Part shown: positions 1 through 46,845 of the stretch, piece by piece | Position numbering within the stretch: the stretch's first letter is position 1 | Layout of the letters: every line of letters begins with the position of its first letter | Assembly: GCA_035685585.1 (NCBI GenBank) | Contig: DASSAH010000346.1 | Span: forward strand, 1 to 46,845 | Reading direction: 5' to 3' | DNA length: 46,845 nucleotides | Source: Coriobacteriia bacterium | GTDB lineage: Bacteria; Actinomycetota; Coriobacteriia; Anaerosomatales; SLCP01 | Made by a program: the position numbers and the translations under genes | The notes under the pieces: generated by a model | What the model saw: only the letters and a program-made list of their open reading frames with translations | The model's database searches: none | Told to the model about the DNA's origin: nothing

Positions 1-141
1 CACGCTGATCGCGATTTCGTCAGCGAGCGGGCCGATCATGCGTTTATCCCCCGCACCGCCATACCGGCCGCGGCGCACGCCTCGCGGAGCCCGCGGCGCC
101 GCTTCTCCTGCGGCGTCAGCGGTCCCGTGTAGCCGGCCGGG
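1..141. repeat. Direct terminal repeat, copy 1 (identical to 46705..46845); overlap of a circular assembly
   Basis: Read directly: bases 1-141 (cacgctgatcgcgatttcgtcagc...gccggccggg) are repeated exactly at the 3' end. The repeat lies inside coding sequence. Confidence 0.95.
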
Positions 142-1955: not shown

Positions 1956-2108
1956 CTATTTCCCCTCCGCGTACAGCCCGTTGACCACGCGCATGACGTG
2001 CTCGATTTCCTTGACCGCGTCGTCCTTGCCGTTGCGCCTGGCGGAGTCGCGCCACTTGCGCAGCAGATCGCAGGCGCGCAGGATGTCGGCGGCGGTTATC
2101 GCAGCCAC
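1956..2108 (-). CDS. Small hypothetical protein (50 aa)
   Basis: GTG at 2108 is preceded by GGGAGGGGAG. The longer ORF 1956..2180 would overlap the upstream gene by 85 nt. Start choice is uncertain. Confidence 0.4.
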   Translation of the reverse strand: MAAITAADILRACDLLRKWRDSARRNGKDDAVKEIEHVMRVVNGLYAEGK

Positions 2109-3331
2109 GGCTCCCCTCCCACATACCGCCATGCCGCCGCGCTCGTGCCCGGCATGCGCTCTCGGATCACCTCGAAGCACCCGGCGTGCTCCGCCATCCA
2201 GTCGTGCTGAAACCGCAACGCGCGGTCTACGCCCGGGCGCTCGAAATACCAGAAGTCCATGAGCACGACGACGGTCTGCCCCGCGATCCAGTGCGGGCCG
2301 AACGTGCGCAGCGCGGGGAGAAACAGGTAGTTGCGCTTGCAGCAGTCGTCGACGTGCAGGGAGATCGGCGGGCCGGCGTAGCGAGCCTTGCGGATGTCGC
2401 CCTTGTGGAGCGTGACGAGCGCGCCGATCTCATGCAGCGTCTCGAACACGCGCCCGCTCGTGTCCTGCCCATCGCGCAGTCGAACTCCATGCGCAGCCGC
2501 TTTCGCGACTTCCCCCGCGCTCGCCTCGAACGCATCGTAGGCGTGCACGACTACGCTCCGCCCGCTGTGCCGCACCCCGAGCGCCATCTGCGCCGTGCCC
2601 GCGCCGAGCCAGCAGCCCAGCTCGACTATCGCGCTCCCGTCCGGGCAGGCGGCGGCCCACTCGCGCAGGTCGCGCCCGATCTCGCGCCCGCCCATGCTCG
2701 GAATCCTCCGCACGGCCTCCGGCACCATGTCGTCGTCAATCGCCCGATGGCGCACGTAGACCAGCTTGAGATAGCTGACCCGCTCCGGCCGCTCCCGCGC
2801 GTCGTCGACGGCCACGACTTCGCCGCCGCACTCGGCAATGAGCGCGAGCAACTCGGGGAGCGTCGCGCCGTAGGGGTCCGTCTCGCTCGACTGCTCGTGC
2901 TCGCTGCCCCACTCGATCACCAGCACGCCGAGCGGAGGTCGCAGGCTGCGCAGCCAATTCGAGACGGCGCGTCGCGGATCCATTGCATGATCGAGGCTGT
3001 TCGAGTAGACGAAATCGGCGACACCCGACCACTCTGGGCGCAGGTCGTGAAAATCCCACTGGATCGTCCGCGGGAACTGCGCAGCGGTCGGCGCGATCTC
3101 GGTGCCGAGCACCTCGCAGCCGGGGAGCAGCTCTGCGAACATAGCCTGCTCGAAGCCGTTGCGCGTGCCGTGACACAGCCCGAAGCGTGGGGCGGCGCCG
3201 ATGAGCTGTTGCACGCGGTCGGCGACGGCGTAGATGTTCGCGGCGCGCGCCCAGGTCGTGCCGATTTTCTCCGCGTTCGCGCGGTACTGCGCGGCCAGGT
3301 AGGCGTCGCGCGTCGGGTAGGTGTAGGTCAT
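2096..3331 (-). CDS. Two-domain SAM-dependent methyltransferase-like protein (N-terminal class I MTase fold plus C-terminal TylF/Methyltransf_24-like domain)
   Basis: N-terminal domain: GLCHGTRNGFEQ...VLGTEI...DFVYSNSLDH. C-terminal domain: IVELGCWLGAGT...VHAYDAFEAS...LHVDD...VVVLMDFWYFE, a paralogue of the 5500..6168 product. ATGA coupling at both ends. Confidence 0.7.
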   Translation of the reverse strand: MTYTYPTRDAYLAAQYRANAEKIGTTWARAANIYAVADRVQQLIGAAPRFGLCHGTRNGFEQAMFAELLPGCEVLGTEIAPTAAQFPRTIQWDFHDLRPEWSGVADFVYSNSLDHAMDPRRAVSNWLRSLRPPLGVLVIEWGSEHEQSSETDPYGATLPELLALIAECGGEVVAVDDARERPERVSYLKLVYVRHRAIDDDMVPEAVRRIPSMGGREIGRDLREWAAACPDGSAIVELGCWLGAGTAQMALGVRHSGRSVVVHAYDAFEASAGEVAKAAAHGVRLRDGQDTSGRVFETLHEIGALVTLHKGDIRKARYAGPPISLHVDDCCKRNYLFLPALRTFGPHWIAGQTVVVLMDFWYFERPGVDRALRFQHDWMAEHAGCFEVIRERMPGTSAAAWRYVGGEPWLR

Positions 3332-4788
3332 GCGTTTGCTCCTGCGAAAAGTGGTAGCTCGTCGTTGACGCGCCGCTCTGCCATCGCCGCGTATTCCGGT
3401 TTGAGCTCGATTCCCACGCCTCGCCGGTTCAGCTTCGCGGCCACGAGTAGCGTCGTGCCGGCGCCCGCGAACGGGTCAAGAACGGCGCAGGGGACGGGAT
3501 CGCCGTCGTGGGAGCAGGAGGGGCGGAAGCCGAGGGTGGTGCGCGTAGGCTCACGGTTGGGTACAAATCCGTCCCGCGTCATGTTCGCAGCGCGCTCCCC
3601 AAATGCACCGAGTCGCCCCTTGTTCGGTGCTGGCGCTCGCTCGGTGGGCGCATACGACTTCTCCACCACGCGCACCCAGGGCGCGCCGCACTCGGGGCAG
3701 CAGCCGCGCTCGCTGGTCCCGGCGCGGATGCAGCGCTCGGCGAGGGCCTCGGGGAACGTGGCAAAGTGGGCTTCGGGGAAGGGCTGCGTTGCGATGGTCC
3801 AGACGGAGCGGGCGTTGCGCGAACGAGGTGCTGTCCCGTTCTCCTCGGTGGCATCCCAGCGGTCGTTGAATCCCACGACGTGATGTGAATTGCCGGGCAT
3901 CTGTGCGGCGGACTCTCTCTGCTTGTCTGTGAAACGGCCGTTTCCTGCTCTCCCATGATCTACCGTGTCCCAGCCGGCCGGGACCTTCTTGCGCTTCCGG
4001 TTCTGCATGTGTCCGGTGTAGCCAACATCGGGGCGGGGGCCGAACGCGAGCAGATCCGGGCGCGTGGTTATTCCTGGCTCTTTGACCGCCTCCGAGTCGT
4101 AGAAGTACCGCGCCGACTTCGACAGCAGGAACACGTACTCATGCGCTTTTGTCGGCCGATCGGTGACGCTCTCCGGCATGGGGTTGGGCTTGTGCCAGAT
4201 GATGTCCGCGCGCAGATACCAGCCGTCGGCCTGCAGCGCGAGCGCGAGCCGCCAGGGGATGCCGCACAGGTCTTTTGGTTTCAGGCTTGCATCGGTAGTG
4301 ATTCCGTGCTTGGAACGCTCACCCTTCTCTCTGCGCTGCCCCTCCTTGCTCCAGTCGCCCATCGGCTGCGCGACAGTTCTCAGTGAGTTGTGCGAGAACA
4401 TGCTTGTAGCGTAGCTATCCCCCATGTTCACCCACACCGTGCCGTCGCTGCGCAGCACCCGGCGCACCTCGCGGAACACGGCGACCATCTTGTCGATGTA
4501 CTCCTCGGGCGTGCGCTCAAGGCCGAGTTGCTGGTCGATCCGGCGGGCGCCGCACTTGCGGCAGATCGAGGCGTCGACGCCCGGGCGCTGGCCTGTCGTG
4601 ATGGCGCCGGGGGCCTTCGTGTCCTCTACCTGCCCGCCTACGCTGTGCTTGCACTCAGGGTCTCCGCCATCCCATGTGCCAGTGCCGTAGTCGCGCAGGC
4701 CCCAGTAGGGCGGGCTCGTGACGACGCAGTGCACGCTCTCGTCGGGCATCGTGCGCAGGATGGTGAGGGCGTCGCCGACGTGGATCAT
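3328..4788 (-). CDS. DNA methyltransferase, beta-class N4/N6 family (SPPY type, probably N4-cytosine)
   Basis: Motif IV TSPPYW near the N-terminus and motif I LDPFAGAGTT near the C-terminus. Cys-rich inserts (CKH...CRKCG; CCPECG). ATGA overlaps on both sides. Confidence 0.85.
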   Translation of the reverse strand: MIHVGDALTILRTMPDESVHCVVTSPPYWGLRDYGTGTWDGGDPECKHSVGGQVEDTKAPGAITTGQRPGVDASICRKCGARRIDQQLGLERTPEEYIDKMVAVFREVRRVLRSDGTVWVNMGDSYATSMFSHNSLRTVAQPMGDWSKEGQRREKGERSKHGITTDASLKPKDLCGIPWRLALALQADGWYLRADIIWHKPNPMPESVTDRPTKAHEYVFLLSKSARYFYDSEAVKEPGITTRPDLLAFGPRPDVGYTGHMQNRKRKKVPAGWDTVDHGRAGNGRFTDKQRESAAQMPGNSHHVVGFNDRWDATEENGTAPRSRNARSVWTIATQPFPEAHFATFPEALAERCIRAGTSERGCCPECGAPWVRVVEKSYAPTERAPAPNKGRLGAFGERAANMTRDGFVPNREPTRTTLGFRPSCSHDGDPVPCAVLDPFAGAGTTLLVAAKLNRRGVGIELKPEYAAMAERRVNDELPLFAGANA

Positions 4789-5510
4789 GCCTCGTGCTCC
4801 GTGAGTTGCGGCTGCTCGTACTCTGTGCGCTCGAACAGGCGCGGGCGGTTAAGCCATGCCGCCTCGATGCGCTTGCACGCGATGTCGAAATACTTGGGCT
4901 CGATCTCGATACCGATGAAGCGGCGGCCGAGGTTGACGCACGCAACGCCCGTCATGCCGCTGCCCATGAAGGGGTCAAGGATGATTTGCGCGTCTGCAAC
5001 AAAACTGAGACACCACTCCATCACCGCAACGGGCTTTTGCGTCGCATGCACCCGCGCCTCACCGCGCTCAGAGTCGCGCAGCATACCGTTCCACATATGG
5101 GCAAGGAGGCGCGCAGGGCCATCAAGGTTCGTCCAAGCCATCTCGCAATCGGCGAAGTCATTGACCGTCGTCCCGCGCCTCTTATCCCATACAAGCCAGC
5201 GCGCGGACTTTGGCAGACGTGCGGCATAGTGATTGCCGCCCCATAGGATTGACGGCACGCCAAGCGCGATAATCGGCGCCGGGTCAAAGTCGGTCTCGTC
5301 GCCACGCACAATGTCCTTGCCGGTGAACCGCTTTTCGTACCGCGAGCCATCACGATCACGACGCCTGATTCCGCCTCCACCGCCGCCGGGCGAATACCCA
5401 ATTCCATACGGCGGGTCCGTGACCACGGCGTCCACCGGCCCCAGCGTCGGGAGCACTTCAAGGCAGTCACCGAGGTACAGCGTGCAGTCGCCGATCTGCT
5501 CAGTACGCAA
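4785..5510 (-). CDS. DNA N6-adenine methyltransferase, beta class (DPPY type)
   Basis: VTDPPYG, HATQKP, LDPFMGSGMTG. TTG start at 5510 preceded by GGGGAGGGGGAAG. The 110 upstream codons of ORF 4785..5840 are Arg/Ser-rich and overlap 5500..6168. Confidence 0.8.
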   Translation of the reverse strand: MRTEQIGDCTLYLGDCLEVLPTLGPVDAVVTDPPYGIGYSPGGGGGGIRRRDRDGSRYEKRFTGKDIVRGDETDFDPAPIIALGVPSILWGGNHYAARLPKSARWLVWDKRRGTTVNDFADCEMAWTNLDGPARLLAHMWNGMLRDSERGEARVHATQKPVAVMEWCLSFVADAQIILDPFMGSGMTGVACVNLGRRFIGIEIEPKYFDIACKRIEAAWLNRPRLFERTEYEQPQLTEHEA

Positions 5511-6168
5511 CGCTTCCCCCTCCCCACTCGAACACCGCCGCCATCCCGTCGCGCTCGACGAACCGGAACGCCCGCGGATTCCGCTCCACAAGACGCCGCT
5601 GGTAGTCGAACGCCTCGCCCGCCTTGCTCTCGTACCAGTAGAAATCCATGAGCACGAGCCGCGCGCCCGATGCGAGGTGCGGGCCGAAGGTGGCAAGTTT
5701 CGCGCGCGTGTAGCGCTCGTCGCAGCCGATGTCGTCGACGAGCAGGCCGATCGGGCCGCCGATATAGGCGGCGTCGAACAGGTCGCCTTTGTTCGCCAGG
5801 ATCGGGGCGCGCATGACCGTCCGCGCGTCCCACTGCGCACCGCCGAGGCCGCCGAGCACCGGGCGGAACGGCGCGAGGTTCGCGATAAATAGCGGCAGCA
5901 GGTCGTCGGGCAACTCCTGGCCGTGATACTGGCGCGCCTTGCCGCGCAGGTCGCAGATCGTCGCGTCCCAGGTGTCGTAGGCGTGGATCTCGCGGTCGGA
6001 ACCGAGAGCGAGGTAGGCCGTCGTGCTCCCGAGATACGGGCCGATGTCGACGATCGCCTGGCCCGGAGGGACAGCGCCCGCGAGGCGGATCAGCGTGTCG
6101 GCGATGCGGCGCCCGCCATGGCCGAGGTCGTGGATTGCGTCGGCGAGAGCGCGGAGGTTTGGTGTCAT
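5500..6168 (-). CDS. TylF/Methyltransf_24-like SAM-dependent methyltransferase-like protein
   Basis: IVDIGPYLGSTT...IHAYDTWDAT...LLVDDIGCDE...RLVLMDFYWYE. Paralogous to the C-terminal domain of 2096..3331. Confidence 0.65.
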   Translation of the reverse strand: MTPNLRALADAIHDLGHGGRRIADTLIRLAGAVPPGQAIVDIGPYLGSTTAYLALGSDREIHAYDTWDATICDLRGKARQYHGQELPDDLLPLFIANLAPFRPVLGGLGGAQWDARTVMRAPILANKGDLFDAAYIGGPIGLLVDDIGCDERYTRAKLATFGPHLASGARLVLMDFYWYESKAGEAFDYQRRLVERNPRAFRFVERDGMAAVFEWGGGSVAY

Positions 6169-6446: not shown

Positions 6447-7012
6447 GCCTTCACCTCGTAAAACCACGTCCATTCCTCGCCGCGCTCGACGCGGTAGGCC
6501 CAGGGCCCGAGAAACGCCGTCACCGCAGCCTGTACCGCGCCCTGGTCCGGCCGCCCGTAGTCGTGCCCGCAGAGCAGACCGCCCGGCCGCACCTTCGGCG
6601 CCCACGCGCGCAGGTCACGCGTCACGCCATCGTAGGAGTGGTCGCCGTCGAGGAAAGCGAAATCGAGCGAGCCGTCGGCCACGCAGCCGGCGGCCGTTAC
6701 GCTGTCCATGTGCAGGATGCAGCGCCGCTCGACCCATGGCGCCGTGCGCCGCTCGGCCTCCATGCGCGCGAGGTCGAACGTCCGCTGCGGGTGCCTCGCC
6801 ATCTGCGCCCCGCTGGCGTAGTAGCTGTCCTCCGGCGGCGGCGCGAGCCAGCGGTCGACCATGTAGAGCCGAAGCCGGGGCCGGGCCGCGAGCAGGCGCT
6901 CCGAGAGGCGGCCCTGCCAGACGCCGACCTCGGCGCCGACGAGCGCGCGGTCTGCGGGCAGGCGGGACAGGATCGCGTCCCAGCGGTGGGCGCGGGGCTC
7001 AGAGCGTGGCAT
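6443..7012 (-). CDS. Class I SAM-dependent methyltransferase (Methyltransf_24-like)
   Basis: VGAEVGVWQGRLS...LYMVDRW...LDFAFLDGDHSYDGV...GGLLCGHDY. ATG at 7012 preceded by GGAGGGAG. Confidence 0.7.
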   Translation of the reverse strand: MPRSEPRAHRWDAILSRLPADRALVGAEVGVWQGRLSERLLAARPRLRLYMVDRWLAPPPEDSYYASGAQMARHPQRTFDLARMEAERRTAPWVERRCILHMDSVTAAGCVADGSLDFAFLDGDHSYDGVTRDLRAWAPKVRPGGLLCGHDYGRPDQGAVQAAVTAFLGPWAYRVERGEEWTWFYEVKA

Positions 7013-7769
7013 CGCGGTACTCCCTCCAGATCCGCGCCGCCTTGCGGAGCTCGGGCGGCAGATCCTCGACCGGCGTCGAGCCAAGCACGGCCCATCGCAG
7101 CGTGCCCTTGACGTGCAACATGCGGCACTCGGGGCCGATGTCCGCCCAGTCGTCCTGGCAGGCGTTCCACTCGCGGCACGGCAGCGCGATCACGCGGGCG
7201 CCGATCTGTGGTAGCTCTTTTTTCACGAGATACCAGAAGCTCGCCTGATTCATCCCGCATGTCGCGCGCCGCCAGGGCTCGTGGAAAACGGGGTCGCGAT
7301 ACATCTGCAGGTCGACCTCGCGCCAGCGGCGGAAAAACGCTTTCGCCGCGGCGGTCGGGCGCACAAAGATGACGCCGCCGTTGATAGGCAGGCGCGGATT
7401 GCTGGTCTGGGTGTAGGCGATGTCCCACGGCTGGTCGATCGGCGTTTCGTAGCCTCCCCACTCGGCGAGGTGGAACGCATCCTCGACGCTCTGCAAGCAC
7501 AGCATGTCGCAGTCGGATAGGATCAGCGGCTCGCCCGCTGCGCGTACCGCCTTCTCCCACTCCCGCAGCTTCGCGTTATTGCTCGTGTACGCCGTGCGCT
7601 TGCCGGGGATTCCGGCGGGCGGGCGCATCTTGATTTCCTCGAACGTGACGCCGGGCATGTTGCGGGCGCACGAGGCGCGGAACACGCGGGAGAGCTCCGC
7701 GTAGGCTCCGGCGTGCGCGCTCGGGGCGCGGCCGTCGTCGTAGTCAAACTCGCAGGTGATGAGTTTCAC
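6999..7769 (-). CDS. GT-A fold nucleotide-sugar glycosyltransferase (GT8-like)
   Basis: DxD-like LILSDCDM, NGGVIFV, GMNQASF and C..WN motifs typical of GT8-type enzymes. GTG start overlaps the upstream stop (GTGA at 7766-7769). Confidence 0.6.
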   Translation of the reverse strand: MKLITCEFDYDDGRAPSAHAGAYAELSRVFRASCARNMPGVTFEEIKMRPPAGIPGKRTAYTSNNAKLREWEKAVRAAGEPLILSDCDMLCLQSVEDAFHLAEWGGYETPIDQPWDIAYTQTSNPRLPINGGVIFVRPTAAAKAFFRRWREVDLQMYRDPVFHEPWRRATCGMNQASFWYLVKKELPQIGARVIALPCREWNACQDDWADIGPECRMLHVKGTLRWAVLGSTPVEDLPPELRKAARIWREYRDATL

Positions 7770-7948
7770 TCGATGACCTCGTAGAGCCGCACCATGTCCT
7801 CCATGCGCACGTCGCACTTGACGAGCTTCAACAGGCATGGCACACAGGTTGCCCGGAGCCCGAGCGTGATTCCGTCCGCTTGATCCTTGAGCTTCGCGCC
7901 GACGATCATCAATGTCCGCTCGCATCCGCAATTTGAACACCGCGTCAT
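7766..7948 (-). CDS. Small zinc-ribbon protein (60 aa)
   Basis: CSNCGC...CVPC cysteine pairs. ATGA/GTGA coupling at both ends. Confidence 0.6.
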   Translation of the reverse strand: MTRCSNCGCERTLMIVGAKLKDQADGITLGLRATCVPCLLKLVKCDVRMEDMVRLYEVIE

Positions 7949-8373
7949 TCTCCTACCTCCACCGGGCTCCCGCCCTTGTCAAACTCGAACGCCCCGCCCT
8001 TCTCGCGCACGACCGTCGAAAACCCGCCCGCCTTGCGCACCTGGGCGAGAAAGTTGATCTGCTCTTTCGTCGTCGTCACGTTCTCTGTTTTCAGTTCACA
8101 AGCACAAAACTGCGCGATCTGTGAGCCGATCATTTCCGCTGTCACCCGCACGCTGCGCCAGCCGATCAGGTCTGACGAGCCCTCGCACAGACCGAACCGG
8201 ATACGGCGCCCGGCAATCTCGTAGATCACCGCCGCGCCCGACCGCGTGCTCGACGGGTAGCTGCGAAGCTCGCGGCCGACGAACCCGACGCCGACGGAGT
8301 TGCGGAAAAGCCGCCAGCCTTGGCGCGTGGACCATAGGAGAAAGCGCTTGAGCAGCGCGGATTCGTGGTTCAT
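7945..8373 (-). CDS. VRR-NUC domain (PD-(D/E)xK) nuclease
   Basis: GSSDLIGW...FCACELKTE...TTKEQINFL matches the VRR-NUC D...E.K...Q pattern. Confidence 0.75.
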   Translation of the reverse strand: MNHESALLKRFLLWSTRQGWRLFRNSVGVGFVGRELRSYPSSTRSGAAVIYEIAGRRIRFGLCEGSSDLIGWRSVRVTAEMIGSQIAQFCACELKTENVTTTKEQINFLAQVRKAGGFSTVVREKGGAFEFDKGGSPVEVGE

Positions 8374-9725
8374 GCGGCCCCCACGGTGCTGAGCGTCAGC
8401 GCACGCGCGAGCCCGGGCGGGACCGCGTTGCCGATCTGACGCACTTGGTCGGTTTTCGTCCCGGCGAAACGGTGCTCGACCGGGAACCCCTGCGCCGCGG
8501 CGAGCTCGTGTGGCTGCAGCATGCGGAACGTGATGTCCAGCGTGTAGGGCTCCCCGTCGACGAGGGCGAAGCGGTCGCGAGTCGTCACGGTGTCGAGCGG
8601 GTCAGCGATCGCGAGCGGCCCGCTGGTGCCGTAGTAGGGGACAATGAACGGGCGCACGAGGCCGTGCCCGTTGCGGGCGCGGATCGCCGGCACTGGATCG
8701 CTCACTCGCCGCGGGGCCCCGGGCGCGTCCTGGTGCAGAATGAACGGCTCGACGAGTCCGAACTTGCCTCCCCCACTTGCGGGGATCGTCGGGCAGGGCT
8801 CGCCGATCGCGTGCGTCCGCGGCTCCTGGCCGTCGCGCTCGCCGTAGTGAGGCACGAGGAAGGACTGCACAAGCCCGACCTCGCCGCGGTGCGCCGCCGT
8901 GACCGTAGCCAGCGGGTCGTCTACCGACTGAACGCGCCCGCCGTGGGTGAGCATGAGCAGGAACGGTTCGGCCCACGCGCCCCAGTACCGGCGGATCCCG
9001 GCCTCGATGCGGCGCAGGGTAGCGGGCGCGAGCGGGCGCTTGCGGTCAAAGATGCTCTGCCCGCGGATGCTCCAGTCGATGATCTCGCCGGCCGAGCGCC
9101 ACGGCTGCGCCCCGAACAGTCCCGGCTCCCGGGCGTGTGTTGGTTCCGGCCAGAGGATGCGGGCCCCGCCACGGGCCGCCTGCAGGAACAGCCGCCGGCG
9201 CGTCGTCGGGTCGCCGTAGTCGGCGGCGCAGAGCACCTGCCACTCGACAGTGTAGCCCATGGCCCGCAGCGCCGCGACGAACGCCTGGAACGTGGCGCCC
9301 TTCTTGGACGCCAGCGGCTTTCCGTCGGCCCCGAGCGGCCCCCACGAGACGAACTCGGGCACGTTCTCGACGATCACCCGGCGCACGTAGAGCTCGCTGA
9401 GCCACTTGAGGATGAGCCAGGCGCTCGCCCGGCTCTGGTCGCTCCGCGGTCGGCCGCCCCGGGCGATGCTATGATGGGTGCACTCTGGTGAGGCCCAGAG
9501 CAGGTCGACGCGGTCCCGGGGCGCGAACACGTCGAGCGGGTTCAGCGTGGCGAGGTCCTGGCAGTAGGACCTCGCGTCGGGGAAGTTGAGCTTGTGCGTC
9601 TCGATGGCGACCAGCCAGTGGTTGACGGCCGCAAGGTCGAGCCGGAGGCCGGCGGAGGCCGCGGCCTGCACGATGCCGCGCGTCTCGCCCCCGCCGCCGC
9701 AGAACAGGTCCGCTATTCGCGTCAC
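8370..9725 (-). CDS. DNA (cytosine-5) methyltransferase
   Basis: Motif I DLFCGGGG, motif IV ASPECTHHS, motif VI ENV, motif VIII TTRRRLF, motif X QIGNAVPP. GTG at 9725 overlaps the primase stop (GTGA), with GGAGGGGG upstream. The 157 upstream codons of ORF 8370..10196 overlap the primase gene. Confidence 0.9.
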   Translation of the reverse strand: MTRIADLFCGGGGETRGIVQAAASAGLRLDLAAVNHWLVAIETHKLNFPDARSYCQDLATLNPLDVFAPRDRVDLLWASPECTHHSIARGGRPRSDQSRASAWLILKWLSELYVRRVIVENVPEFVSWGPLGADGKPLASKKGATFQAFVAALRAMGYTVEWQVLCAADYGDPTTRRRLFLQAARGGARILWPEPTHAREPGLFGAQPWRSAGEIIDWSIRGQSIFDRKRPLAPATLRRIEAGIRRYWGAWAEPFLLMLTHGGRVQSVDDPLATVTAAHRGEVGLVQSFLVPHYGERDGQEPRTHAIGEPCPTIPASGGGKFGLVEPFILHQDAPGAPRRVSDPVPAIRARNGHGLVRPFIVPYYGTSGPLAIADPLDTVTTRDRFALVDGEPYTLDITFRMLQPHELAAAQGFPVEHRFAGTKTDQVRQIGNAVPPGLARALTLSTVGAA

Positions 9726-12265
9726 TCTTCCCCCTCCAGGTACGCTGCCCGAAACTCCGTCCAGCGCAGCAGGCGCGCGCGACGACGGCCCATGAGAAAC
9801 GGCACGATCTTGCCCTCCCCGGCGTTGACGCACAGCTTGTTGCGCCGTAGCTGCGCGTCGTAGCCCATCGCATACGGCGTGTCGGCGAGCACCGTCTGCA
9901 GCCGCTCGCTCTGAGTCGCGACGGCCAGGTGGTCCCTGTAGAACGTGAGCCCGAGCCGCGAGAGCGCGTCGCCGGCCCTGTCGTCCTGCCCGGTCGACGC
10001 GCGCTTGAGCAGTTCCGCGATCGTGCGCGTCGTGTTGTCGTCGAGCCGCACCTGCGCGCCAATGATGTGCTCGATCACGCGGTCCTCGTCCTCGAGCGTC
10101 GCGCCCGTGTCGCCCTCGCTGAGCTGGGCGACGAGCGGAGCCTGCCACGCCATGCCGGCGTCGCTGCAAATCGGCTCGCTCGACTGCACGGCCCACGCCG
10201 CGGCGAGCAGGGGCGCGTACACGTCGCCCTTGCGCTGGTCGCCGACGACGCTCGCGATCCCCTCGCGCAGATACGCGATGTCAGCGAGCACGCGCGGGAG
10301 CGCTCGGAAAATGCGGCGGCGAAACCTTCCGGAGTCGTGCCCGAGCAACGCCCGGTACAACTCCGCCGACCTCCGTATTTTCTCGCGCTCGCCCTCCGCG
10401 GTGCTCCGTTGCATTTCGCAGATCACCCAGCGGCTCGCCTGCGCCGCGTCCGCCTCGGCGACGTTCACGGCAGCCACGCAAAAGCATGAGCGGATCAGGT
10501 ATTGCACAACCCCGTCACCCCGCGCCTGCGTCACGTAGCCGGAGCCGTCGCCGGCGGAGTTGCGCACCAAGCTCAAGAGCCCGCTGATGTTTTCCTTTTC
10601 GCGCTTGTTTCGCGCCTCGGCCTCGTCGAGCACGACCGGGCGAGCGTCGCGGTTCAACGTGCGGCGGATCCCGGCTTGCGTGTCCATGCCGGCGCCTGTG
10701 TGTGCGAACGGGCCCACGACCTCGCGGACGTACTTGAGCAGGCTGCTCTTGCCGACGCCCTTCGGGCCGGTGATCCAGATATTCGGGCGCCAGGAGAGCA
10801 GGCCGCCAAACGGCGCGATGAGCGCCCAGCCGAGCGCGGAGGCCGCCTGCACGGGCGCGCGGAACGCCTGCAGCATAAACAGGCGTCCGAGCGCCTTGCC
10901 GTCCTCGTCGCTGTTCCCGTCGCCCGACATGTCGCCGAATTCGACGCGACCGCTGCTCGCGTAGTACGCCTCGCCCTCGAAGGCATCGTAGGGGATGCGC
11001 GTTCCGTCGCCGAGCACGATCTGTCGCCCGTCGTTTATCACGATTCGCTCGCGGTCAAGCCAGACGCCGACGCCCCGCAGCACCTCGAGGCGGAACGCGC
11101 CGGCCGCAGTGGACTCGGCTATGACGTGGTCCTGCGCGGGCGCGACCTTGATGCTCCCCTGATCGCCGACGAAATTGTTTTGAGACCACCAGGCCAGCGG
11201 CGCAAGCTCGCCAAGCTGGGAAGCTGAGAAGCGGCCCAGCGGGATCTCGAACGGAACGCGCCGGGGGCACAAAAGGAAATGGTGCTCCGCGGCGTCGTGT
11301 CCGAGGCAGATAAACGGGCGCGGCTCGCCGGAGGCAGATGTCTCGGCGGGCGGGGGCGGCAGGTGGCTGTTGATGAAGTCGACGAGGTCGATGCCCTCGG
11401 CCGCGGCGTCTGCGATGTCCCAGCCAGCCGGCTTGTCTGTCGGCGAGGTGAGCACGACAGCCTGCGGGAGCCGCTGCTTGATCGCGCGCGCGGCCTTGGC
11501 ACCCGGCTCGTCGGCGTCCGGCCAGATCGTCACGTTGCGGCCGGCCAGCGGGGACCAGTCGGCCTTTGTGACCGCTGAGCTGCCCGAGGCCCACGTAACG
11601 ACGACGTAGCCCGGCACCGGAACGTCCCCGCACTTCTCCCCTTCCACGACGAGCACGGGCAGGTCCGGCTGCGCCGCGAGGCGGTCGAGCCCGTAGAGCG
11701 GGCGGTCGCTCTCGTAAGCCTGCCCGTTGTGCCACTTGCCGTCCGTGCCGTAGTACCAGGGGAGGATCGCCTTGCCGTGCCCCTCGCGCTCGTACCTGAC
11801 GACGCAAAACAGCACGCGCCCCTCGGCGTCGACGTAGCGCCAGCCCTTGACCGGATGCCCGTGCCGCTCGACGTACCACGCATCGGCGGCGGCGGCGTTT
11901 AGCGATTTCAGGCGATCGGCGGGCACCGGGAGCACCGGCTCGACCTTGGGTTTGCGCGTGCGTTCCCGGCGTGGGGAAACCGCCGAGGGCGCGGAATCTG
12001 CGCCGTCCGGCACGAGGCGGGCGACGGCGTCGGCGACGGTCACGCCCTCGCGCTCGGCGTAGGCGTCGAGCACAGAGCCGCGGAATCCGTCGTCGCCAAA
12101 ATCCTTGACCGCTGGCCCGCCGTCGACCATGTGACAGCTTGGCGTGTGATCGTCCGGCCTGCGGCTCCACCAGTAGTCGGCGCCGCGGAACTCGCCGCCC
12201 GGGAAGTAGCGATCGGGGCTGGCGGCGAGGATGCTTTTTGCGCGCTCGAATCGCGAATCCGGCAC
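9722..12265 (-). CDS. DNA primase/helicase (Toprim domain plus P-loop NTPase, DUF927-like)
   Basis: Toprim-like VLVVEGEKCGD and IWPDADEPG, Walker A ITGPKGVGKSSL, Walker B VVLDEAE. 847 aa. Confidence 0.8.
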   Translation of the reverse strand: MPDSRFERAKSILAASPDRYFPGGEFRGADYWWSRRPDDHTPSCHMVDGGPAVKDFGDDGFRGSVLDAYAEREGVTVADAVARLVPDGADSAPSAVSPRRERTRKPKVEPVLPVPADRLKSLNAAAADAWYVERHGHPVKGWRYVDAEGRVLFCVVRYEREGHGKAILPWYYGTDGKWHNGQAYESDRPLYGLDRLAAQPDLPVLVVEGEKCGDVPVPGYVVVTWASGSSAVTKADWSPLAGRNVTIWPDADEPGAKAARAIKQRLPQAVVLTSPTDKPAGWDIADAAAEGIDLVDFINSHLPPPPAETSASGEPRPFICLGHDAAEHHFLLCPRRVPFEIPLGRFSASQLGELAPLAWWSQNNFVGDQGSIKVAPAQDHVIAESTAAGAFRLEVLRGVGVWLDRERIVINDGRQIVLGDGTRIPYDAFEGEAYYASSGRVEFGDMSGDGNSDEDGKALGRLFMLQAFRAPVQAASALGWALIAPFGGLLSWRPNIWITGPKGVGKSSLLKYVREVVGPFAHTGAGMDTQAGIRRTLNRDARPVVLDEAEARNKREKENISGLLSLVRNSAGDGSGYVTQARGDGVVQYLIRSCFCVAAVNVAEADAAQASRWVICEMQRSTAEGEREKIRRSAELYRALLGHDSGRFRRRIFRALPRVLADIAYLREGIASVVGDQRKGDVYAPLLAAAWAVQSSEPICSDAGMAWQAPLVAQLSEGDTGATLEDEDRVIEHIIGAQVRLDDNTTRTIAELLKRASTGQDDRAGDALSRLGLTFYRDHLAVATQSERLQTVLADTPYAMGYDAQLRRNKLCVNAGEGKIVPFLMGRRRARLLRWTEFRAAYLEGEE

Positions 12266-17149: not shown

Positions 17150-17208
17150 CTCTCAAAAAAACATGTTCGCACCTTGACGCCGATAACAGAAGTGGTTAGA
17201 ATATGTTG
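17128..17208. promoter_or_regulatory. Operator-like CATGTT repeats in the divergent control region
   Basis: CATGTTTG at 17128 and 17138 (10-bp phasing, inside the leftward promoter spacer). The palindrome AACATGTT occurs within GAACATGTTT (17136-17145) and AAACATGTTC (17159-17168). TATGTTG at 17202-17208 follows the rightward -10. Confidence 0.55.
17174..17202 (+). promoter_or_regulatory. Candidate rightward promoter (-35 TTGACG, 17-nt spacer, -10 TAGAAT)
   Basis: TTGACG-ccgataacagaagtggt-TAGAAT, followed by GGAGGG and the ATG at 17223. Confidence 0.6.
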
Positions 17209-17222
17209 CGGAGGGTACAGGG

Positions 17223-17606
17223 ATGGCAGATTCGGATTACAAGAGCTTTTCTGTGAGGCTCCCGCTCTCGCTGCTCGACAAGGTCGGCAGGATCGCCGCG
17301 GGGCGCGAGTGGAGCAACAATAAGGTCATCATCAAGGCTATCGAGCGCGGCCTCCCGATCGTGGCCGAAGCTGATTTGAGTGGCCCGACGCCCCAGGGAC
17401 CACCGCCCGCGCCGGCGCGTCACCGGTCCCGAGCGCCCCGCATCGAGGGCGAGCAGCCGAGCCGCGGCTACAGCGGCACGCTGCCCTTTAAGTCGACTTC
17501 TGATTATACATTATACGAAGCTGGCGCCGACCCCTCCGCACAGATTGGAGAAATTGACCGCCTTATGGAAGAAATTGACCGTTGCGCCGACAGGGACGCC
17601 GCGTGA
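17223..17606 (+). CDS. Ribbon-helix-helix regulator with low-complexity C-terminal tail
   Basis: YKSFSVRLPLSLLDKVGRIAAGREWSNNKVIIKAIERGLPIV aligns residue-for-residue with the 16944..17114 product. SD GGAGGG. Confidence 0.7.
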   Translation: MADSDYKSFSVRLPLSLLDKVGRIAAGREWSNNKVIIKAIERGLPIVAEADLSGPTPQGPPPAPARHRSRAPRIEGEQPSRGYSGTLPFKSTSDYTLYEAGADPSAQIGEIDRLMEEIDRCADRDAA

Positions 17607-17634
17607 CAATGCCCTCCGAAATGGAGGCCCCGCC

Positions 17635-17931
17635 ATGCTCACGATTCACCCGGATATCGGTCTGCACCAACGACCGCGGCCACGGCTCGACAGTTCGCCG
17701 ATGCCGTTCTGCCACTGTACGACGCTCACAGCGATCACGTACCAGCCCGATCTACTGCCGATGCTGCGCTGTCTCGACTGCCCGCGCGTCTACGTCGCCG
17801 TGCCGCTCGACGACTGGAGGGCATTCATGCGGCGGGCGTACATCGACCATGTCAACCAGGTCCACCGCGCCCACGCGGCAGTCCGCCACTTTTGGACGAC
17901 TGCGGCAGAGCCGCATGCTAAACTGTCATAG
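17635..17931 (+). CDS. Hypothetical Cys/His-containing protein (98 aa)
   Basis: ATG at 17635 preceded by GGAGG. FCHC...CLDC. The upstream part of ORF 17380..17931 overlaps the RHH gene. Confidence 0.5.
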   Translation: MLTIHPDIGLHQRPRPRLDSSPMPFCHCTTLTAITYQPDLLPMLRCLDCPRVYVAVPLDDWRAFMRRAYIDHVNQVHRAHAAVRHFWTTAAEPHAKLS

Positions 17932-17941
17932 GAGGCCACGT

Positions 17942-19114
17942 ATGTACCGTATCGGTTCCCTTATCGCTTTCTGTACCATTCTGGTTCTCTTCGCAGCCTG
18001 CGACCCGGCCAGCGACGACGCCGGCCGTCCGGTGCGCGCCGCGGTGACAGACGCTACGGGCCTGTTTCTCCAGACCGCGGGCGCCGGGCGTTCCGCTCGC
18101 GCCGCGTCCCTGGTAGGCGGCGAGCTCGCGAAACTTGCGCCCGGCTACGTCGGCCCGGTCGAGTTTACCGACGCCGAGGGCAAGCCGGTCACGCTGCTCG
18201 TGTCTCAGGCGGCCGAGCTGCGCGCGGATCGCCTGCTCATCGTGCACGACCAGGGCGCAAGCCTCATCGACATGGGGACCGGCGCCATGCTCGACGTGCC
18301 CACGCCCGCGCGGCTGGACCTGGCGCGCACGACCGCCGATCACGTCTATTACGTCGCCGGCAACAGCCTGCACCGGGTCGCGCTTGAGGACGGGGCGGAT
18401 CTGCTCATGTCGGGCGACGCGGATATCCCCGGCCCGTCGCGGCTCTACGTCACGCCGTCGGGCGCCGTGTTCTCGGGGCATGCAACGTCGGTCCCGGCTG
18501 GCCGCCGCTACTGGGTCAGCTACCCGGACGCGACGCCCCCGCTTGACCTATCGAGTGACGGCAACGCAATCCTGTTTTTCGAGGGCCTGGCGGGGTTTGT
18601 GATCGAGCACGCCGGCACGCTCTACCAGATCCGCGACATGGGGATGCAGCTCGGCGCGACGGAGATCACACTCGACCCTGACGGCCCGCTCTATGTGTCG
18701 CCCGGGACCGAGGCCGTCTGCGACTCGGCAGGGCCGTACTACGCCTGGACGCGGCTCGCGGAAAACCTGTACACCGACGATGCGCATATCTACCGCTTCG
18801 CGGGCACCATAATCACCAGCTACCCGCAGACGGCCGAGGTATCAAGTGGCGCGTGGCTGCCGGACGCCAAGGTCGACGGTGATGCGCTATACATCGGGTG
18901 GGACGCGGGGGGCACGCTCAAGGTGCGGGCGCTGGACCTCGCGGCGGCCGGGGCGCAGACGGCGTTGCTCGACGAGCCCGCGGCATCGGACTACGCGGTT
19001 GTCGCCGGGAGCATCTTCTACGTCAAGGCGGACGGAACGTGGAGAAAGGACATCACGACGGGCACGGTCAGCAAGTACTCGGACACGCCGGCGGAGATCG
19101 AGGCGGTGCGGTAG
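17942..19114 (+). CDS. Predicted lipoprotein, repeat-rich (beta-propeller-like?) (390 aa)
   Basis: ATG at 17942 preceded by GGAGG. Signal peptide plus lipobox MYRIGSLIAFCTILVLFAAC. Recurrent ..YYV/LYV/FYV.. strands. The upstream 120 codons of ORF 17582..19114 are Arg/Ser/Thr-rich junk. Confidence 0.65.
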   Translation: MYRIGSLIAFCTILVLFAACDPASDDAGRPVRAAVTDATGLFLQTAGAGRSARAASLVGGELAKLAPGYVGPVEFTDAEGKPVTLLVSQAAELRADRLLIVHDQGASLIDMGTGAMLDVPTPARLDLARTTADHVYYVAGNSLHRVALEDGADLLMSGDADIPGPSRLYVTPSGAVFSGHATSVPAGRRYWVSYPDATPPLDLSSDGNAILFFEGLAGFVIEHAGTLYQIRDMGMQLGATEITLDPDGPLYVSPGTEAVCDSAGPYYAWTRLAENLYTDDAHIYRFAGTIITSYPQTAEVSSGAWLPDAKVDGDALYIGWDAGGTLKVRALDLAAAGAQTALLDEPAASDYAVVAGSIFYVKADGTWRKDITTGTVSKYSDTPAEIEAVR

Positions 19115-19188: not shown

Positions 19189-19216
19189 AGGCCCCGGCAA
19201 GTGTCGGGGCCTTTTT
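19189..19216 (+). terminator. Rho-independent terminator between convergent genes
   Basis: AGGCCCCG-gcaagtgt-CGGGGCCT followed by TTTTT. Confidence 0.75.
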
Positions 19217-19217
19217 G

Positions 19218-19565
19218 TCAGCGGACACACGAGCAATTACTCCCCCACACCTCCCGCCCAGCAATCTCTGACCAGTGATTGTCGTGCGTCCTGCCGTGGT
19301 GCATCGTCCACGCGCCCAGCACCTGTTCATCAGACCAGTAGCGATCACCATCGTAGGCCCGGATCTCCCGAGCAAACTTTCCGCCCCTGCCAAGCCCAAG
19401 CATCGTTCGCCAGAAGCGAGCCTGCTTGAATCCGGGCCGACACGTCAAGATCATGTAGACGCCACTCTCGTAGGTAACGCGCTGGCCGAGCATCCGCAAG
19501 AGGCGGCCGTTCTCGAAATAGCCCTTGTCGGGCTCCACGTCGGCGCTGCATGGTATCTGTGTCAC
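19218..19565 (-). CDS. Hypothetical 115-aa protein (candidate toxin/effector partner of the upstream RHH)
   Basis: GTG start overlaps the RHH stop (GTGA). Lower GC than the genome average. No family recognised by eye. Confidence 0.55.
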   Translation of the reverse strand: MTQIPCSADVEPDKGYFENGRLLRMLGQRVTYESGVYMILTCRPGFKQARFWRTMLGLGRGGKFAREIRAYDGDRYWSDEQVLGAWTMHHGRTHDNHWSEIAGREVWGSNCSCVR

Positions 19566-19744
19566 GCCTCGGCCTCCTCGCCGCCAAACAGATTGACCGG
19601 CTTCGCCTCCAGTTCTCCGCGCTCGACGCGCGACATGATAGCCGACCGGCAGTAGGCGCTCAAGGCGATCCGCTCCTTTTTTGCGGCAGCCGCTACCCGG
19701 TCACGATCCTCTCCGCTCAGATAGACAAACAACTTTGCTACCAT
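19562..19744 (-). CDS. Ribbon-helix-helix (CopG/antitoxin-like) protein, 60 aa
   Basis: MVAKLFVYLSGEDRDRVAAAAKKERIALSAYCRSAIMSRV is a strand-helix-helix pattern. ATG at 19744 preceded by AAGGGG. Confidence 0.6.
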   Translation of the reverse strand: MVAKLFVYLSGEDRDRVAAAAKKERIALSAYCRSAIMSRVERGELEAKPVNLFGGEEAEA

Positions 19745-19797
19745 TACACACCCCTTTGGCGGCTCTCTACTACCACTATCGCATAACCGCCACAACC

Positions 19798-19826
19798 ATC
19801 ATACACCGGATGCGTCATGCTGTCAA
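19798..19826 (-). promoter_or_regulatory. Near-consensus sigma70-type promoter for the RHH/115-aa module
   Basis: The minus strand reads TTGACA-gcatgacgcatccggtg-TATGAT (17-nt spacer). The 5' UTR contains the inverted repeat TGGCGG...CCGCCA. Confidence 0.6.
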
Positions 19827-19829
19827 ATA

Positions 19830-20241
19830 AGTAGCGTTATGGTAGCGCGTGGGAGCGCCGAGACACCTATATCTACACCCCTGTCTGTGTAAGCCGTGTA
19901 GTTCTGTGCAGCCCCCGCGCGGCCCCACACTCTCACTAACTCCTTTTAATGTATGTATATATATAAGAGGGCGCATGTCCCATCACACTTACACACTTGC
20001 ACAGTACGTAACGTGCGTGTGCGCGCACGCGTGGACGTAGTTCGGCGTGTCATTTGTGCAAGCGACCACTCCTATAGGTGTGCTTGTGCGGCTGATTTGC
20101 TGTGTAGCTGTGCAGAATGCAACTCGCGTGCCAAAAGGTACTGTCCCGGCGCCGCTTTCTCCGAGGGTAGGCGTGTGCCGCTCGGCTGTCGCGCACTGAG
20201 GTTTGACAGTGTTAAGTTAACGGTGCTACAGTTAACGCATT
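19830..20241 (+). promoter_or_regulatory. Non-coding region upstream of terS; candidate cos/packaging-initiation region
   Basis: About 410 bp with no credible ORF, directly upstream of a Nu1-like terS (as in lambda). It contains an AT-rich tract (19945-19968), a 23-nt alternating purine-pyrimidine tract with the palindrome GTGCGCGCAC (20011-20033), repeats GTGTAG(TT)CTGTGCAG (19896-19911 and 20102-20115), repeats AGTTAACG (20215-20222 and 20230-20237), and TTGACA (20203) with TACAGT (20227). Confidence 0.45.
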
Positions 20242-20847
20242 ATGCCTCGCCTTACATCGGCCGCATTTGCGCGCGCGGCCAAGGTTTCCCGGGCCGCCGT
20301 CACCCAGGCTGTACGCCGCGGCCGTCTCGTCGTGGACGCTGGCCTGCTCGACACGGATCAGCCGCAAAATGCCGCCTACCTCGCCAGTTCCGGCGGCAAG
20401 CGAAAGCCGACGCGCGCGGCGACGGCCAGCAAGGATGCGCCGCCAGCGGCACCCTTCGGCTTTCACGGCCTCGATCCCGCCGACGCCGGAAAGGCGCTCG
20501 AAGCGCTCGTGGGCCTGATCGGCCCCAAGGAGCGCGCCGAGATCCGGCGGATCAACGCGCAGGCCCGGGCGACGGAGGCGAAACTCGCCCGCGAGGCCGG
20601 CCGCGTGATCGAGCGCTCGAAGGTGCAGGCAGCGCTCGGACGCCTCGGCGCCGCCTACCAGGACCGCCTGCTAACGCTCGGCACCCGGCTCGCGCCGAAA
20701 CTCGAGGCCGTGTTCGACACGGGCGGCCGTGCGCCGCAGATCCGTGCGGTGCTCGACGCAGAGCTGGCAGACGCAATCCGCGCGCTCAAGCAGGCCGCGG
20801 TTGCCGAGGGCTTGACCACCGAGCGCGCCATGGGGCAGACGGCGTGA
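20242..20847 (+). CDS. terS: Terminase small subunit (Nu1-like, N-terminal HTH)
   Basis: N-terminal HTH LTSAAFARAAKVSRAAVTQAVRRGRL and a coiled-coil middle domain. It sits immediately upstream of the gpA-like TerL, with a GTGA overlap. Confidence 0.8.
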   Translation: MPRLTSAAFARAAKVSRAAVTQAVRRGRLVVDAGLLDTDQPQNAAYLASSGGKRKPTRAATASKDAPPAAPFGFHGLDPADAGKALEALVGLIGPKERAEIRRINAQARATEAKLAREAGRVIERSKVQAALGRLGAAYQDRLLTLGTRLAPKLEAVFDTGGRAPQIRAVLDAELADAIRALKQAAVAEGLTTERAMGQTA

Positions 20848-40929: not shown

Positions 40930-41576
40930 TCTCCGCCGTCCCGCAGACCGCCGCCTGGCGCCGTCAGCTCGATCGCGCCGCAAAGGACGCGCTCCCCCGC
41001 GCCCGCGTGGCCACGGTCAACGCGCTCGCCCGAGCGAGCCTGAGCGGTCAGCGTCGCGAGCTGGCGAAAATGACGCTGCGCAACCGATACACCGAGGGCA
41101 GCCTCCGAATCTCGCTCGCCAAGGTGCGCAGCTCGGGCGCGGCTGGCAACGCGATCATCGGGACTGTGAGCCCGTACCTGCCCCTGCAGGAGCGCGGCGG
41201 AATCCGGCGGCCGGTGCGCGGGCGGCTCGTTCCCGTGCCGACGCGTGGCGCCCGCGGTGGCAACTGGCGTGCTCCTGTCCCGCGTCGGCTCGCGCTCGGC
41301 CCGCAGGTGCGGTTCGGTGAGACGAAGCGCAGCGGGAAGAAAGGCCGCAGTCGCGCTCGATCTTTTTTCGTGCTCGTCTCCGGCCCGCGGATGCGTCGCC
41401 CTGGCGTGTTTCTCCGCGAGGGGCGCCGGCTGCTGAAAATCCGCACGCTCATGCCGCGCTATCACGTCGAGGCGACGCGCTGGCACACCGGGCCCGTGCG
41501 CAAGTACGCGACGCACAGCCTCGCCGCGCAGGTGTTCATCCGCGAGGCGAAAAAGCTGCTTGGGCAGATCCGGTGA
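40926..41576 (+). CDS. Hypothetical basic protein (216 aa), possibly virion-morphogenesis related
   Basis: ATGA-coupled, Arg-rich. No confident family. Confidence 0.45.
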   Translation: MISAVPQTAAWRRQLDRAAKDALPRARVATVNALARASLSGQRRELAKMTLRNRYTEGSLRISLAKVRSSGAAGNAIIGTVSPYLPLQERGGIRRPVRGRLVPVPTRGARGGNWRAPVPRRLALGPQVRFGETKRSGKKGRSRARSFFVLVSGPRMRRPGVFLREGRRLLKIRTLMPRYHVEATRWHTGPVRKYATHSLAAQVFIREAKKLLGQIR

Positions 41577-42130
41577 CGCACCGTATCATCGCCATCGCCG
41601 GCCACAAGCGCAGCGGTAAGTCAACCGTCGCGGTGCACCTCCGCGACCGCTACGGATTCCAAGTCCGCGCGCTCGCGGATCCGATCAAGGCGGCGTGCCG
41701 CGAGATTTTCGGCTGGACCATAGAGCACACCGACGGCGCGCTCAAGGAAACCATCGACGAGCGCTACGGCCTGAGCCCGCGGCAGGCGATGCAACACCTC
41801 GGCACCGAGTGGGGGCAGTTCGGCCTGTCGGGCGAGTTCCCGCGCTTCGCCGAGCGCACCGAGCGCGGCCTCTGGGTGCGCCGCCTCCTCGCGGGGATCT
41901 CGGGAGACGTTGTCGTGCCGGACGTGCGCTTTCTCCACGAGGCCGGCGCGCTCGGGGAGTGTGGCGCGGTGATCTGGCGCATCTGTCGGCCCGACTGCCG
42001 GGGCGACGCGCACGCGAGCGAGGCCGAGGTCGACCGGATCGACGCCGACGCGATGATCGAAAACTGCGGGACGCTGGCCGATCTCGAGGCCCGCGTCGAC
42101 GAGCTTATGCGACAAGTGAGGCAACAGTGA
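41573..42130 (+). CDS. Deoxynucleoside monophosphate kinase-like P-loop kinase
   Basis: IIAIAGHKRSGKST (Walker A), DPIK, RQAMQHLGTEWG, VVPDVRFLHE. Resembles phage dNMP kinases. Confidence 0.7.
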   Translation: MTHRIIAIAGHKRSGKSTVAVHLRDRYGFQVRALADPIKAACREIFGWTIEHTDGALKETIDERYGLSPRQAMQHLGTEWGQFGLSGEFPRFAERTERGLWVRRLLAGISGDVVVPDVRFLHEAGALGECGAVIWRICRPDCRGDAHASEAEVDRIDADAMIENCGTLADLEARVDELMRQVRQQ

Positions 42131-43544: not shown

Positions 43545-43816
43545 GCCTTGGCCGCCGGGTCGAGTGTCGCCGCCTCGATTTCGTGCCCCTCTGCCGTGTT
43601 TCCCCATATGGGGCGGCCGGTCTGGAGGATGCGGGCGATTATCCGCTCGACCACAGGTGTCAGCACGTCCTCGGCCGTTTTCGCGAGCCTCTTCTTGTGC
43701 CTGCCAGCATCGGCCAGGGCGGCCCGGCGAATGTATGGCGCGAGCTTTTCGCCGCCGGCGGCAAGCCGCAAGAGTGCGGCCTGCTCGTCGTCAAACGTGA
43801 CTTTGATCTCCGGCAT
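43541..43816 (-). CDS. Ribbon-helix-helix-like protein (91 aa)
   Basis: MPEIKVTFDDEQAALLRLAAGGEKLAPYIRRAAL is a strand-helix-helix pattern. The ATG shares a base with the recT stop (TAATG). Confidence 0.5.
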   Translation of the reverse strand: MPEIKVTFDDEQAALLRLAAGGEKLAPYIRRAALADAGRHKKRLAKTAEDVLTPVVERIIARILQTGRPIWGNTAEGHEIEAATLDPAAKA

Positions 43817-46743: not shown

Positions 46744-46845
46744 GCGTTTATCCCCCGCACCGCCATACCGGCCGCGGCGCACGCCTCGCGGAGCCCGCGG
46801 CGCCGCTTCTCCTGCGGCGTCAGCGGTCCCGTGTAGCCGGCCGGG
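46705..46845. repeat. Direct terminal repeat, copy 2 (identical to 1..141)
   Basis: Exact 141/141 identity read directly. Confidence 0.95.

Follow-up and report, generated by a model that had tools for sequence, protein, structure and literature searches.

Organisation of the module

The stretch of DNA analysed in this study (46,845 nt; contig DASSAH010000346.1 of assembly GCA_035685585.1, filed under a Coriobacteriia bacterium), referred to below in its full length as the window, carries on its minus strand a short two-gene module (19218-19826). The first gene (19744-19562, minus strand) encodes a 60-aa protein, RHH60 (MVAKLFVYLSGEDRDRVAAAAKKERIALSAYCRSAIM...), which is a probable ribbon-helix-helix (RHH) protein, and the second (19565-19218, minus strand) encodes the cargo of the operon, a basic, Arg- and Trp-rich ORFan protein of 115 aa (pI 8.8-9.7). 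An earlier inspection of the letters and reading frames (the sequence-only reading) had described this pair as a toxin-antitoxin (TA)-like or defence module beside the packaging site. The coordinates, the peptide and the orientation against both neighbours were all found as that reading gave them: the module diverges from the packaging genes terS and terL on one side and converges with a plus-strand lipoprotein gene (17942-19114) on the other.

The module is preceded by a sigma-70-type promoter, TTGACA-17-TATGAT (19826-19798, minus strand), which agrees with the consensus at 11 of 12 positions and from which transcription would start near 19791. This promoter, also named in the sequence-only reading, is the best of only four sigma-70-like sites in the 46.8-kb sequence that score 10/12 or better (17174+, 19826-, 20203+ and 22835); the first three of these head transcription units around the probable cos region (see below). 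In three contigs of sister phages (L001, L003 and L004) the two hexamers are conserved, 17 nt apart as in the window (TTGACA-17-TATACT), though the spacer and the leader have diverged. As regards the other sites, that at 20203 precedes terS and reads TTGACA-18-TACAGT with an upstream TG; such a promoter would not be expected in front of late packaging genes. The site at 22835 is located at the end of terL.

A leader of approximately 47 nt separates the promoter from the RHH gene, whose ATG start codon has the sequence GGGG 7 nt upstream. The GTG start codon of the 115-aa gene overlaps the RHH stop codon (GTGA, a coupling that had also been noticed before) and has a Shine-Dalgarno sequence, GAGGAGG, 7 nt upstream. 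This tight junction is kept in the sister phages, as an overlap in L001 and as a 3-nt gap in L004. Five nucleotides past the stop codon of the 115-aa gene lies a GC-rich hairpin terminator (19189-19212), common to the module and the convergent lipoprotein gene. Its T-run is found on the plus strand only; on the minus strand an A-tract precedes the hairpin. The hairpin is kept in L001 and L004, where changes are confined to the loop. Rfam and tRNA scans of the module region gave nothing at threshold. With its own promoter and terminator beside terS and terL, the module is thus the autonomous unit, adjoining the packaging genes, that the earlier reading had proposed.

The correct frames are singled out by their GC content at third codon positions (GC3; 0.76 for the 115-aa gene and 0.73 for the RHH gene) and by a low GC content at second positions. 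The dN/dS ratio of the 115-aa gene against the sister contigs is 0.12-0.20; that of the RHH gene is 0.075 between two sister lineages and 0.45 between the window and L004, which is the sole computable comparison involving the window. Purifying selection thus acts on the products of both genes. The GC content of the module (0.61) is lower than that of the genome (0.672), again in line with the earlier description.

A probable RHH regulator and its candidate operators

RHH60 (pI 5.1-6.2) consists of a core, approximately residues 4-43, and an acidic tail of about 17 aa, which contains the motif (K/R)P-x-x-(I/L)-(F/P)-G, kept in all lineages. All of its profile matches are to RHH families, namely the NikA-like family (E=0.004; 17.7 bits, with a curated cut-off of 27), ORF56 (E=0.001; 19.1 bits, cut-off 50), the RelB antitoxin (E=0.04; 14.2 bits) and MbpA (12.3 bits). 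The best solved structure is that of ORF56 from pRN1 (PDB 2k9i, E=0.022), which corresponds to RHH60 residue for residue over positions 4-43, and two sister orthologues match the NikA-like profile at E=2e-4 (21.7-21.9 bits). The protein follows the sequence pattern of the RHH fold, an N-terminal beta-strand of alternating residues and then two helices with a short loop between them in about 45 residues (KLFVYLS / GEDRDRVAAAAKKE / RIALS / AYCRSAIMSRV), and the helix-B segment SAYCRSAIM is invariant across three lineages. Since all of the scores lie below the curated thresholds, membership of the RHH (CopG/Arc/MetJ) superfamily, as assigned in the sequence-only reading, is probable and not proven; it is the consistency of these sub-threshold matches that argues for it.

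The size of the protein is informative as well. Pure RHH regulators are very small (Arc, 53 aa; CopG, 45 aa; ORF56, 56 aa), while the usual RHH antitoxins (RelB, ParD, CcdA, DinJ) have 72-90 aa; the size of RHH60 is that of the pure regulators and not that of the RelB, ParD and CcdA antitoxins. The best sequence matches of RHH60 (NCBIfam ORF56 and PDB 2k9i) are to a protein of this group and of the same size. CopG and ORF56 autorepress a bicistronic operon, and the unit in the window is likewise bicistronic and may be autorepressed. It differs from these systems in its downstream gene, which encodes a 115-aa ORFan here and a replication protein there, and in that the RHH60 scores fall short of the family cut-offs.

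The sequence-only reading had pointed to an inverted repeat in the leader, TGGCGG-N24-CCGCCA, as the autoregulatory element. The repeat is indeed present (19757-19792), but the role ascribed to it did not hold up: when the window was shuffled 100 times, 30 of the shuffled sequences contained at least one such match, and the leaders of the sister phages lack the repeat. As it is neither significant nor conserved, we rejected it as evidence for an operator. The predicted fold of the leader RNA (z = -1.95) is only marginally better than those of shuffled sequences.

Better operator candidates are provided by four boxes built around TGGTAG and conforming to the pattern TRRTGGTWGY. Candidate box a, TTATGGTAGC (19837-19846, plus strand), is inverted, lies just upstream of the -35 hexamer and has one mismatch to the pattern. 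The other three match it exactly on the minus strand: box b, TGATGGTTGT (19792-19801), overlaps the -10 hexamer and the transcription start; box c, TAGTGGTAGT (19769-19778), lies in the leader; and box d, TAATGGTAGC (19737-19746), overlaps the ATG of the RHH gene. Box a and the start-codon box form an 11-nt inverted repeat with 91% complementarity. The pattern is matched exactly at only three places in the 46.8 kb, where 0.26 would be expected, each of them between the -10 hexamer and the ATG and on the coding strand; as the sites themselves served to derive the pattern, this statistic is only indicative. The shorter TGGTAG occurs in three copies within 108 bp and in 20 copies in the whole window. 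No boxes of the TRRTGGTWGY type were found at the other promoters of the genome, which suggests that the protein binding them would be a dedicated autoregulator.

Additional support for autoregulation comes from the sister phages, in which the box sequence and the RHH protein change together. The same four positions (upstream of -35, after -10, in the leader and at the start codon) are occupied there by CGTGCAY boxes, and the N-terminal beta-strand of the RHH protein reads GRVVSYLS in the sisters and AKLFVYLS in the window. The N-terminal strand is the DNA-reading element of the RHH fold. The difference therefore has the appearance of a paired change of repressor and operator, in which the DNA-binding specificity of the two would have shifted in concert.

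A second unit headed by an RHH gene is situated approximately 2 kb from the module (17174-19114, plus strand). It comprises the promoter TTGACG-17-TAGAAT at 17174, a gene for a 127-aa protein with an RHH-like N-terminus (RHH127; 17223-17606, plus strand; weak Arc-like match, E=0.08) and the convergent lipoprotein gene mentioned above (17942-19114). The L004 orthologue of RHH127 passes the Pfam RHH_1 threshold; in that contig its orientation with respect to the lipoprotein gene is reversed. The 390-aa lipoprotein has the lipobox LFAAC and no family match, and it may serve in superinfection exclusion or receptor masking. Because RHH127 heads a lipoprotein operon, the placing of an RHH gene first is not a TA-specific feature in this genome.

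The presence of two RHH genes is reminiscent of the immI region of phage P22, in which a strongly promoted short operon (Pant-arc-ant) has an RHH gene in first position, followed by the gene of an effector, with a second RHH gene nearby. The module might accordingly be a regulatory one of the Arc-Ant or Cro-CII kind, in which RHH60 would play the part of an Arc-type repressor and its 115-aa partner that of a small antirepressor or transcription factor steering phage development. The basic, Arg-rich character of the 115-aa protein would be compatible with nucleic-acid binding, and the module is divergent to the terS promoter. P22 Arc represses its own promoter, and the likeness on this point consists in the autorepression that RHH60 may exert. 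The partner protein here is, however, much smaller than Ant and shows no similarity to it; it has no match to the ANT, KilA-N, Bro or HTH profiles; and the operator sequence is unrelated to that of P22. The TGGTAG boxes, as stated above, are absent from the other promoters. Moreover, there is no evident target for an antirepressor: a scan covering all GC3-supported open reading frames (ORFs) outside the structural block, together with several ORFs within it, revealed neither an integrase nor a CI/S24 repressor. Genes for ParA, an endolysin or a holin were not recognised among these ORFs either. We consider this explanation improbable.

The 115-aa protein and its relatives

The second gene of the module encodes a protein whose invariant positions include eight Arg, nine aromatic residues (four of them Trp) and N96; the sole invariant Cys and His are C42 and H90. 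This composition hints at nucleic-acid or protein binding. The sequence-only reading could not place the protein in any family, and the searches performed here led to the same result. No match at E<=1 was obtained in Pfam, PHROGs, PADLOC or NCBIfam, which means that no toxin, defence or anti-defence profile of these collections recognises the protein, and no anti-CRISPR family of PHROG or Pfam does so either. The HNH profiles were likewise negative. A profile search of PDB sequences gave chance matches to sushi domains or Fab fragments only, and these were dismissed. AlphaFold2 models of the window protein and of its relative P0002, each built on an alignment of three sequences, reached pLDDT values of 42.5 and 41.6 and were unusable; with Foldseek they gave nothing below E=3.5 against the PDB. 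Judged by its sequence, the 115-aa protein is a true ORFan with no assignable family.

Its relatives are few. A word-indexed search of 5.8 billion clustered proteins found only two, with 74% and 70% identity, both from sister phages, and a further near-identical copy was found through the RHH gene, so that the known relatives are P0002, P0003 and L024 (70-77% identity to the window protein). In an exhaustive profile search (HMMER) of 1.84 billion representatives, P0003 was accompanied only by tandem-repeat proteins with HYR, sushi or Kazal domains, which we rejected as artefacts. These matches (P0004-P0008) reached E-values down to 1e-14 with 4-12 weak stretches each; each repeat scores weakly against the VTYESGVYMILTCRPGF segment, and these small scores, being many, add up to the low E-values. 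This is an artefact that should be borne in mind in profile searches of this kind. Pattern and tblastn scans of IMG/VR, JGI metagenomes and GTDB genomes revealed no homologue, and neither did tblastn against GenBank phages and PLSDB plasmids. A single match in Arthrobacter was discarded, as it covers 25 residues in a non-coding frame.

The arrangement is identical at all four sister loci, where the RHH gene is followed by a gene for 109-115 aa and then by the convergent lipoprotein gene. The 115-aa protein of the window has 70-77% identity to its counterparts in the sisters, the RHH protein 51-61% and the lipoprotein 71-79%. The module and the lipoprotein gene beside it have thus diverged together, and the module looks to have been inherited vertically. 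More distant phages with the same type of terminase (L012 and L016) have different genes upstream of terS, co-directional with it, and for this reason they are uninformative as regards the module.

These findings bear directly on the explanation to which the architecture most readily lends itself, i.e. that the two genes form a bona fide type II TA or abortive-infection pair, in which a toxin of a new family would be neutralised by the C-terminal tail of RHH60 and the complex would autoregulate the promoter. As in RelBE, ParDE, CcdAB and FitAB, the operon opens with a small RHH gene, which overlaps a gene for a basic partner of about 100 aa, the promoter is strong and bears repeats, and the whole is an autonomous unit on a mobile element. 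The GTGA overlap and the conservation of the tight junction in the sister phages agree with this, as do the sizes of the proteins (60 and 115 aa), the combination of an acidic RHH protein (5.1-6.2) with a basic partner (8.8-9.7), the weak match to the RelB antitoxin profile, the purifying selection on the tail of RHH60 with its short conserved motif, and the GC content of the module, which is below that of the rest of the genome.

Other observations do not fit such a pair. TA families are normally widespread and mobile, whereas this one has no homologue in the bacterial genomes, plasmids and unrelated phages searched, and the pair seems to be inherited vertically with its neighbour. In contrast to the four systems named above, the partner matches no toxin superfamily (none of the known toxin profiles at E<=1, whether of RelE/ParE, MazF/CcdB, PIN, HicA, Doc/Fic, GNAT, zeta, RES, HEPN or others) and the RHH protein has only 60 aa (72-95 aa in the antitoxins of those systems), with a tail of approximately 17 aa that is short in comparison with antitoxins of the RelB, ParD and CcdA types. 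The RHH-first order is unspecific, given the operon headed by RHH127, and the lysogeny or plasmid-maintenance functions that would give an addiction role its meaning were not found in the scanned ORFs. Of the claim that this is a TA-like or defence module, the architecture (two adjacent co-transcribed small genes, that of the DNA-binding protein first) therefore stands, but no toxin, defence or anti-defence profile adds to it. A TA pair is allowed by the architecture alone, and we regard it as a possible but rather unlikely explanation. We do not think that the effector is a classical mobile type II toxin.

Genomic setting and possible role of the module

The first and last 141 nt of the window (1-141 and 46705-46845) are identical, so that it represents a circular assembly and, by virtue of this terminal overlap, a complete genome of approximately 46.7 kb. 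The sequence occurs in one DNA run, from a soil metagenome, which was its sole match; no RNA run contained it. TerL of the closest cultured phage is at most 38% identical, and no phage in GenBank matches the genome at the DNA level, both of which point to a new phage lineage. The host genome of the module is best read as that of a novel cos-packaging, myovirus-like phage.

Directly to the right of the module, on the plus strand, lie terS (20242-20847), terL of the lambda GpA type, which follows it, a lambda-type portal gene, the tail sheath gene and the remainder of the late operon, closed by a gene for a dNMP kinase (41573-42130, plus strand). The early, minus-strand arm encodes HTH regulators and ParB-like proteins, a primase and a helicase, at least five DNA methyltransferases, a VRR-NUC nuclease (7945-8373), a RecE-like exonuclease and a RecT-like annealase (43816-46295). 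The methyltransferase-like genes form a dense run on the minus strand between 2096 and 10196 (2096-3331, 3328-4788, 4785-5840, 5500-6168/6443-7084 and 8370-10196), with a nucleotide-sugar transferase-like gene (6999-7940, minus strand) in their midst. This run suggests a heavy investment in anti-restriction DNA modification.

Between the module promoter and terS there is a non-coding block (approximately 19880-19990, extending towards 20050) which contains ...CTTATATATATACATACATTAAAAGGAGTTAGTGAGAGTGTGGGG...CTGCACAGAACTACACGGCTTACACAGAC... and is nearly invariant among the sister phages, even though their genes differ by 25-50%. Two of the sister contigs (L003 and L004) terminate inside it, at about 19950 and 19967. 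The block is probably the cos site. Repeats lying between it and terS (GCYGTGTAGYTSTG, CTGTGCAG and GTGCKTGTGCG) could be terminase-binding sites. In phage lambda, packaging runs from the terS side and the right end, packaged last, is injected first. By analogy, the module would be located approximately 130-730 bp from the right cohesive end and would fall within the first 0.75 kb or so to enter the cell.

The proximity of the module to the probable cos block (about 130 bp) and to terS (about 420 bp) might also indicate that the 115-aa protein is a packaging accessory, i.e. a cos-associated, HNH-like nuclease or a DNA-binding factor working with the terminase, a case that the sequence-only reading had named as one that would speak against its own proposal. 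The data argue strongly in the opposite direction. The gene lies on the strand opposite terS and terL and is transcribed away from the packaging operon, from a host-type promoter of its own, and distant phages with the same type of terminase lack the module. There is no HNH profile match, and with C42 and H90 as the sole invariant Cys and His, neither a beta-beta-alpha-metal motif nor a zinc finger can be formed, which excludes a nuclease of the HNH or zinc-finger type. The His...Asn...His motif and the Cys pairs of HNH packaging endonucleases are missing. This explanation is largely refuted and we regard it as very improbable.

A different precedent for a cos-adjacent position is provided by the accessory hotspots of P2 and P4 (PMC9122126). 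In P2-like phages and P4 these hotspots (old, tin, gop-beta-cII) hold, like the region described here, oppositely oriented cargo of lower GC content beside cos; their defence cargo includes a TA-like system, a point in favour of a TA pair in the present case as well (PMC9122126). The P2/P4 cargo is non-essential and varies among related phages, whereas all four sister contigs carry the same cargo in this lineage. Furthermore, P2 and P4 are temperate, whereas the scanned ORFs of the window phage include no integrase or CI-type repressor.

Taken as a whole, the evidence leads us to favour, although only tentatively and with less than even confidence, the view that the module is an autonomous accessory operon (of the "moron" type or immediate-early), autorepressed by its RHH protein and carrying as cargo a lineage-specific basic effector. 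The host RNA polymerase would fire from the strongest sigma-70 promoter of the genome. A dimer of RHH60 would bind the four TGGTAG boxes (beside the -35 hexamer, on the -10 hexamer and start site, in the leader and at the start codon) and throttle the operon. The effector, made by translational coupling to RHH60 and confined to this phage lineage, might then take part in host take-over, counter-defence or exclusion by acting on a nucleic-acid-related target of the host or of a rival phage. As for the conserved motif in the tail of RHH60, it could either contact the effector or mediate oligomerisation of the RHH protein.

RHH autorepressors of strong anti-defence promoters are known, an example being Aca14 (PMC13551039). 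Operons with such RHH-type Aca14 proteins resemble the module in having a strong promoter with repeats over the -10 hexamer and an RHH gene (here that of a putative autorepressor) co-transcribed with a small, fast-evolving gene of narrow range (PMC13551039). The genes of Aca14-type operons are expected to be early. There are also differences: acr-aca operons encode the regulator last, and the 115-aa protein, which is basic, has no match among the known anti-defence proteins.

Several points weigh against an accessory operon of this kind. The regulator-first order, the reverse of that in acr-aca operons, is usual in type II TA systems, which the pairing of acidic RHH60 with a basic 115-aa partner also fits, and many known anti-defence proteins are acidic, unlike the 115-aa protein. 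Every match of RHH60 to RHH families sits below the curated cut-off and the box pattern is a post hoc one; that RHH60 binds the boxes and represses its own operon, and that the 115-aa protein has an activity at all, are steps that we infer. The position of cos and the polarity of injection are derived solely by analogy. Lastly, with neither an integrase nor a CI-type repressor among the scanned ORFs, the timing of expression cannot be argued.

A more far-reaching proposal is that the 115-aa protein founds a new effector family (with a function in toxicity and abortive infection, or else in counter-defence and take-over), held in check by a minimal RHH60, restricted to one clade of uncultured soil phages and expressed from the genome end that is probably injected first. 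We consider this proposal doubtful. Should the protein nevertheless turn out to be toxic or to inhibit a defence system, this would mean a fold or family that current databases do not cover, paired with one of the smallest known RHH partners. Otherwise, the module would be one of the many small lineage-specific accessory operons of phages, suitable for inclusion in a toxicity or anti-defence screen but not a priority by itself. The paired change of the operator boxes and the RHH beta-strand among sister phages would, for its part, offer a compact natural example of a shift in repressor specificity.

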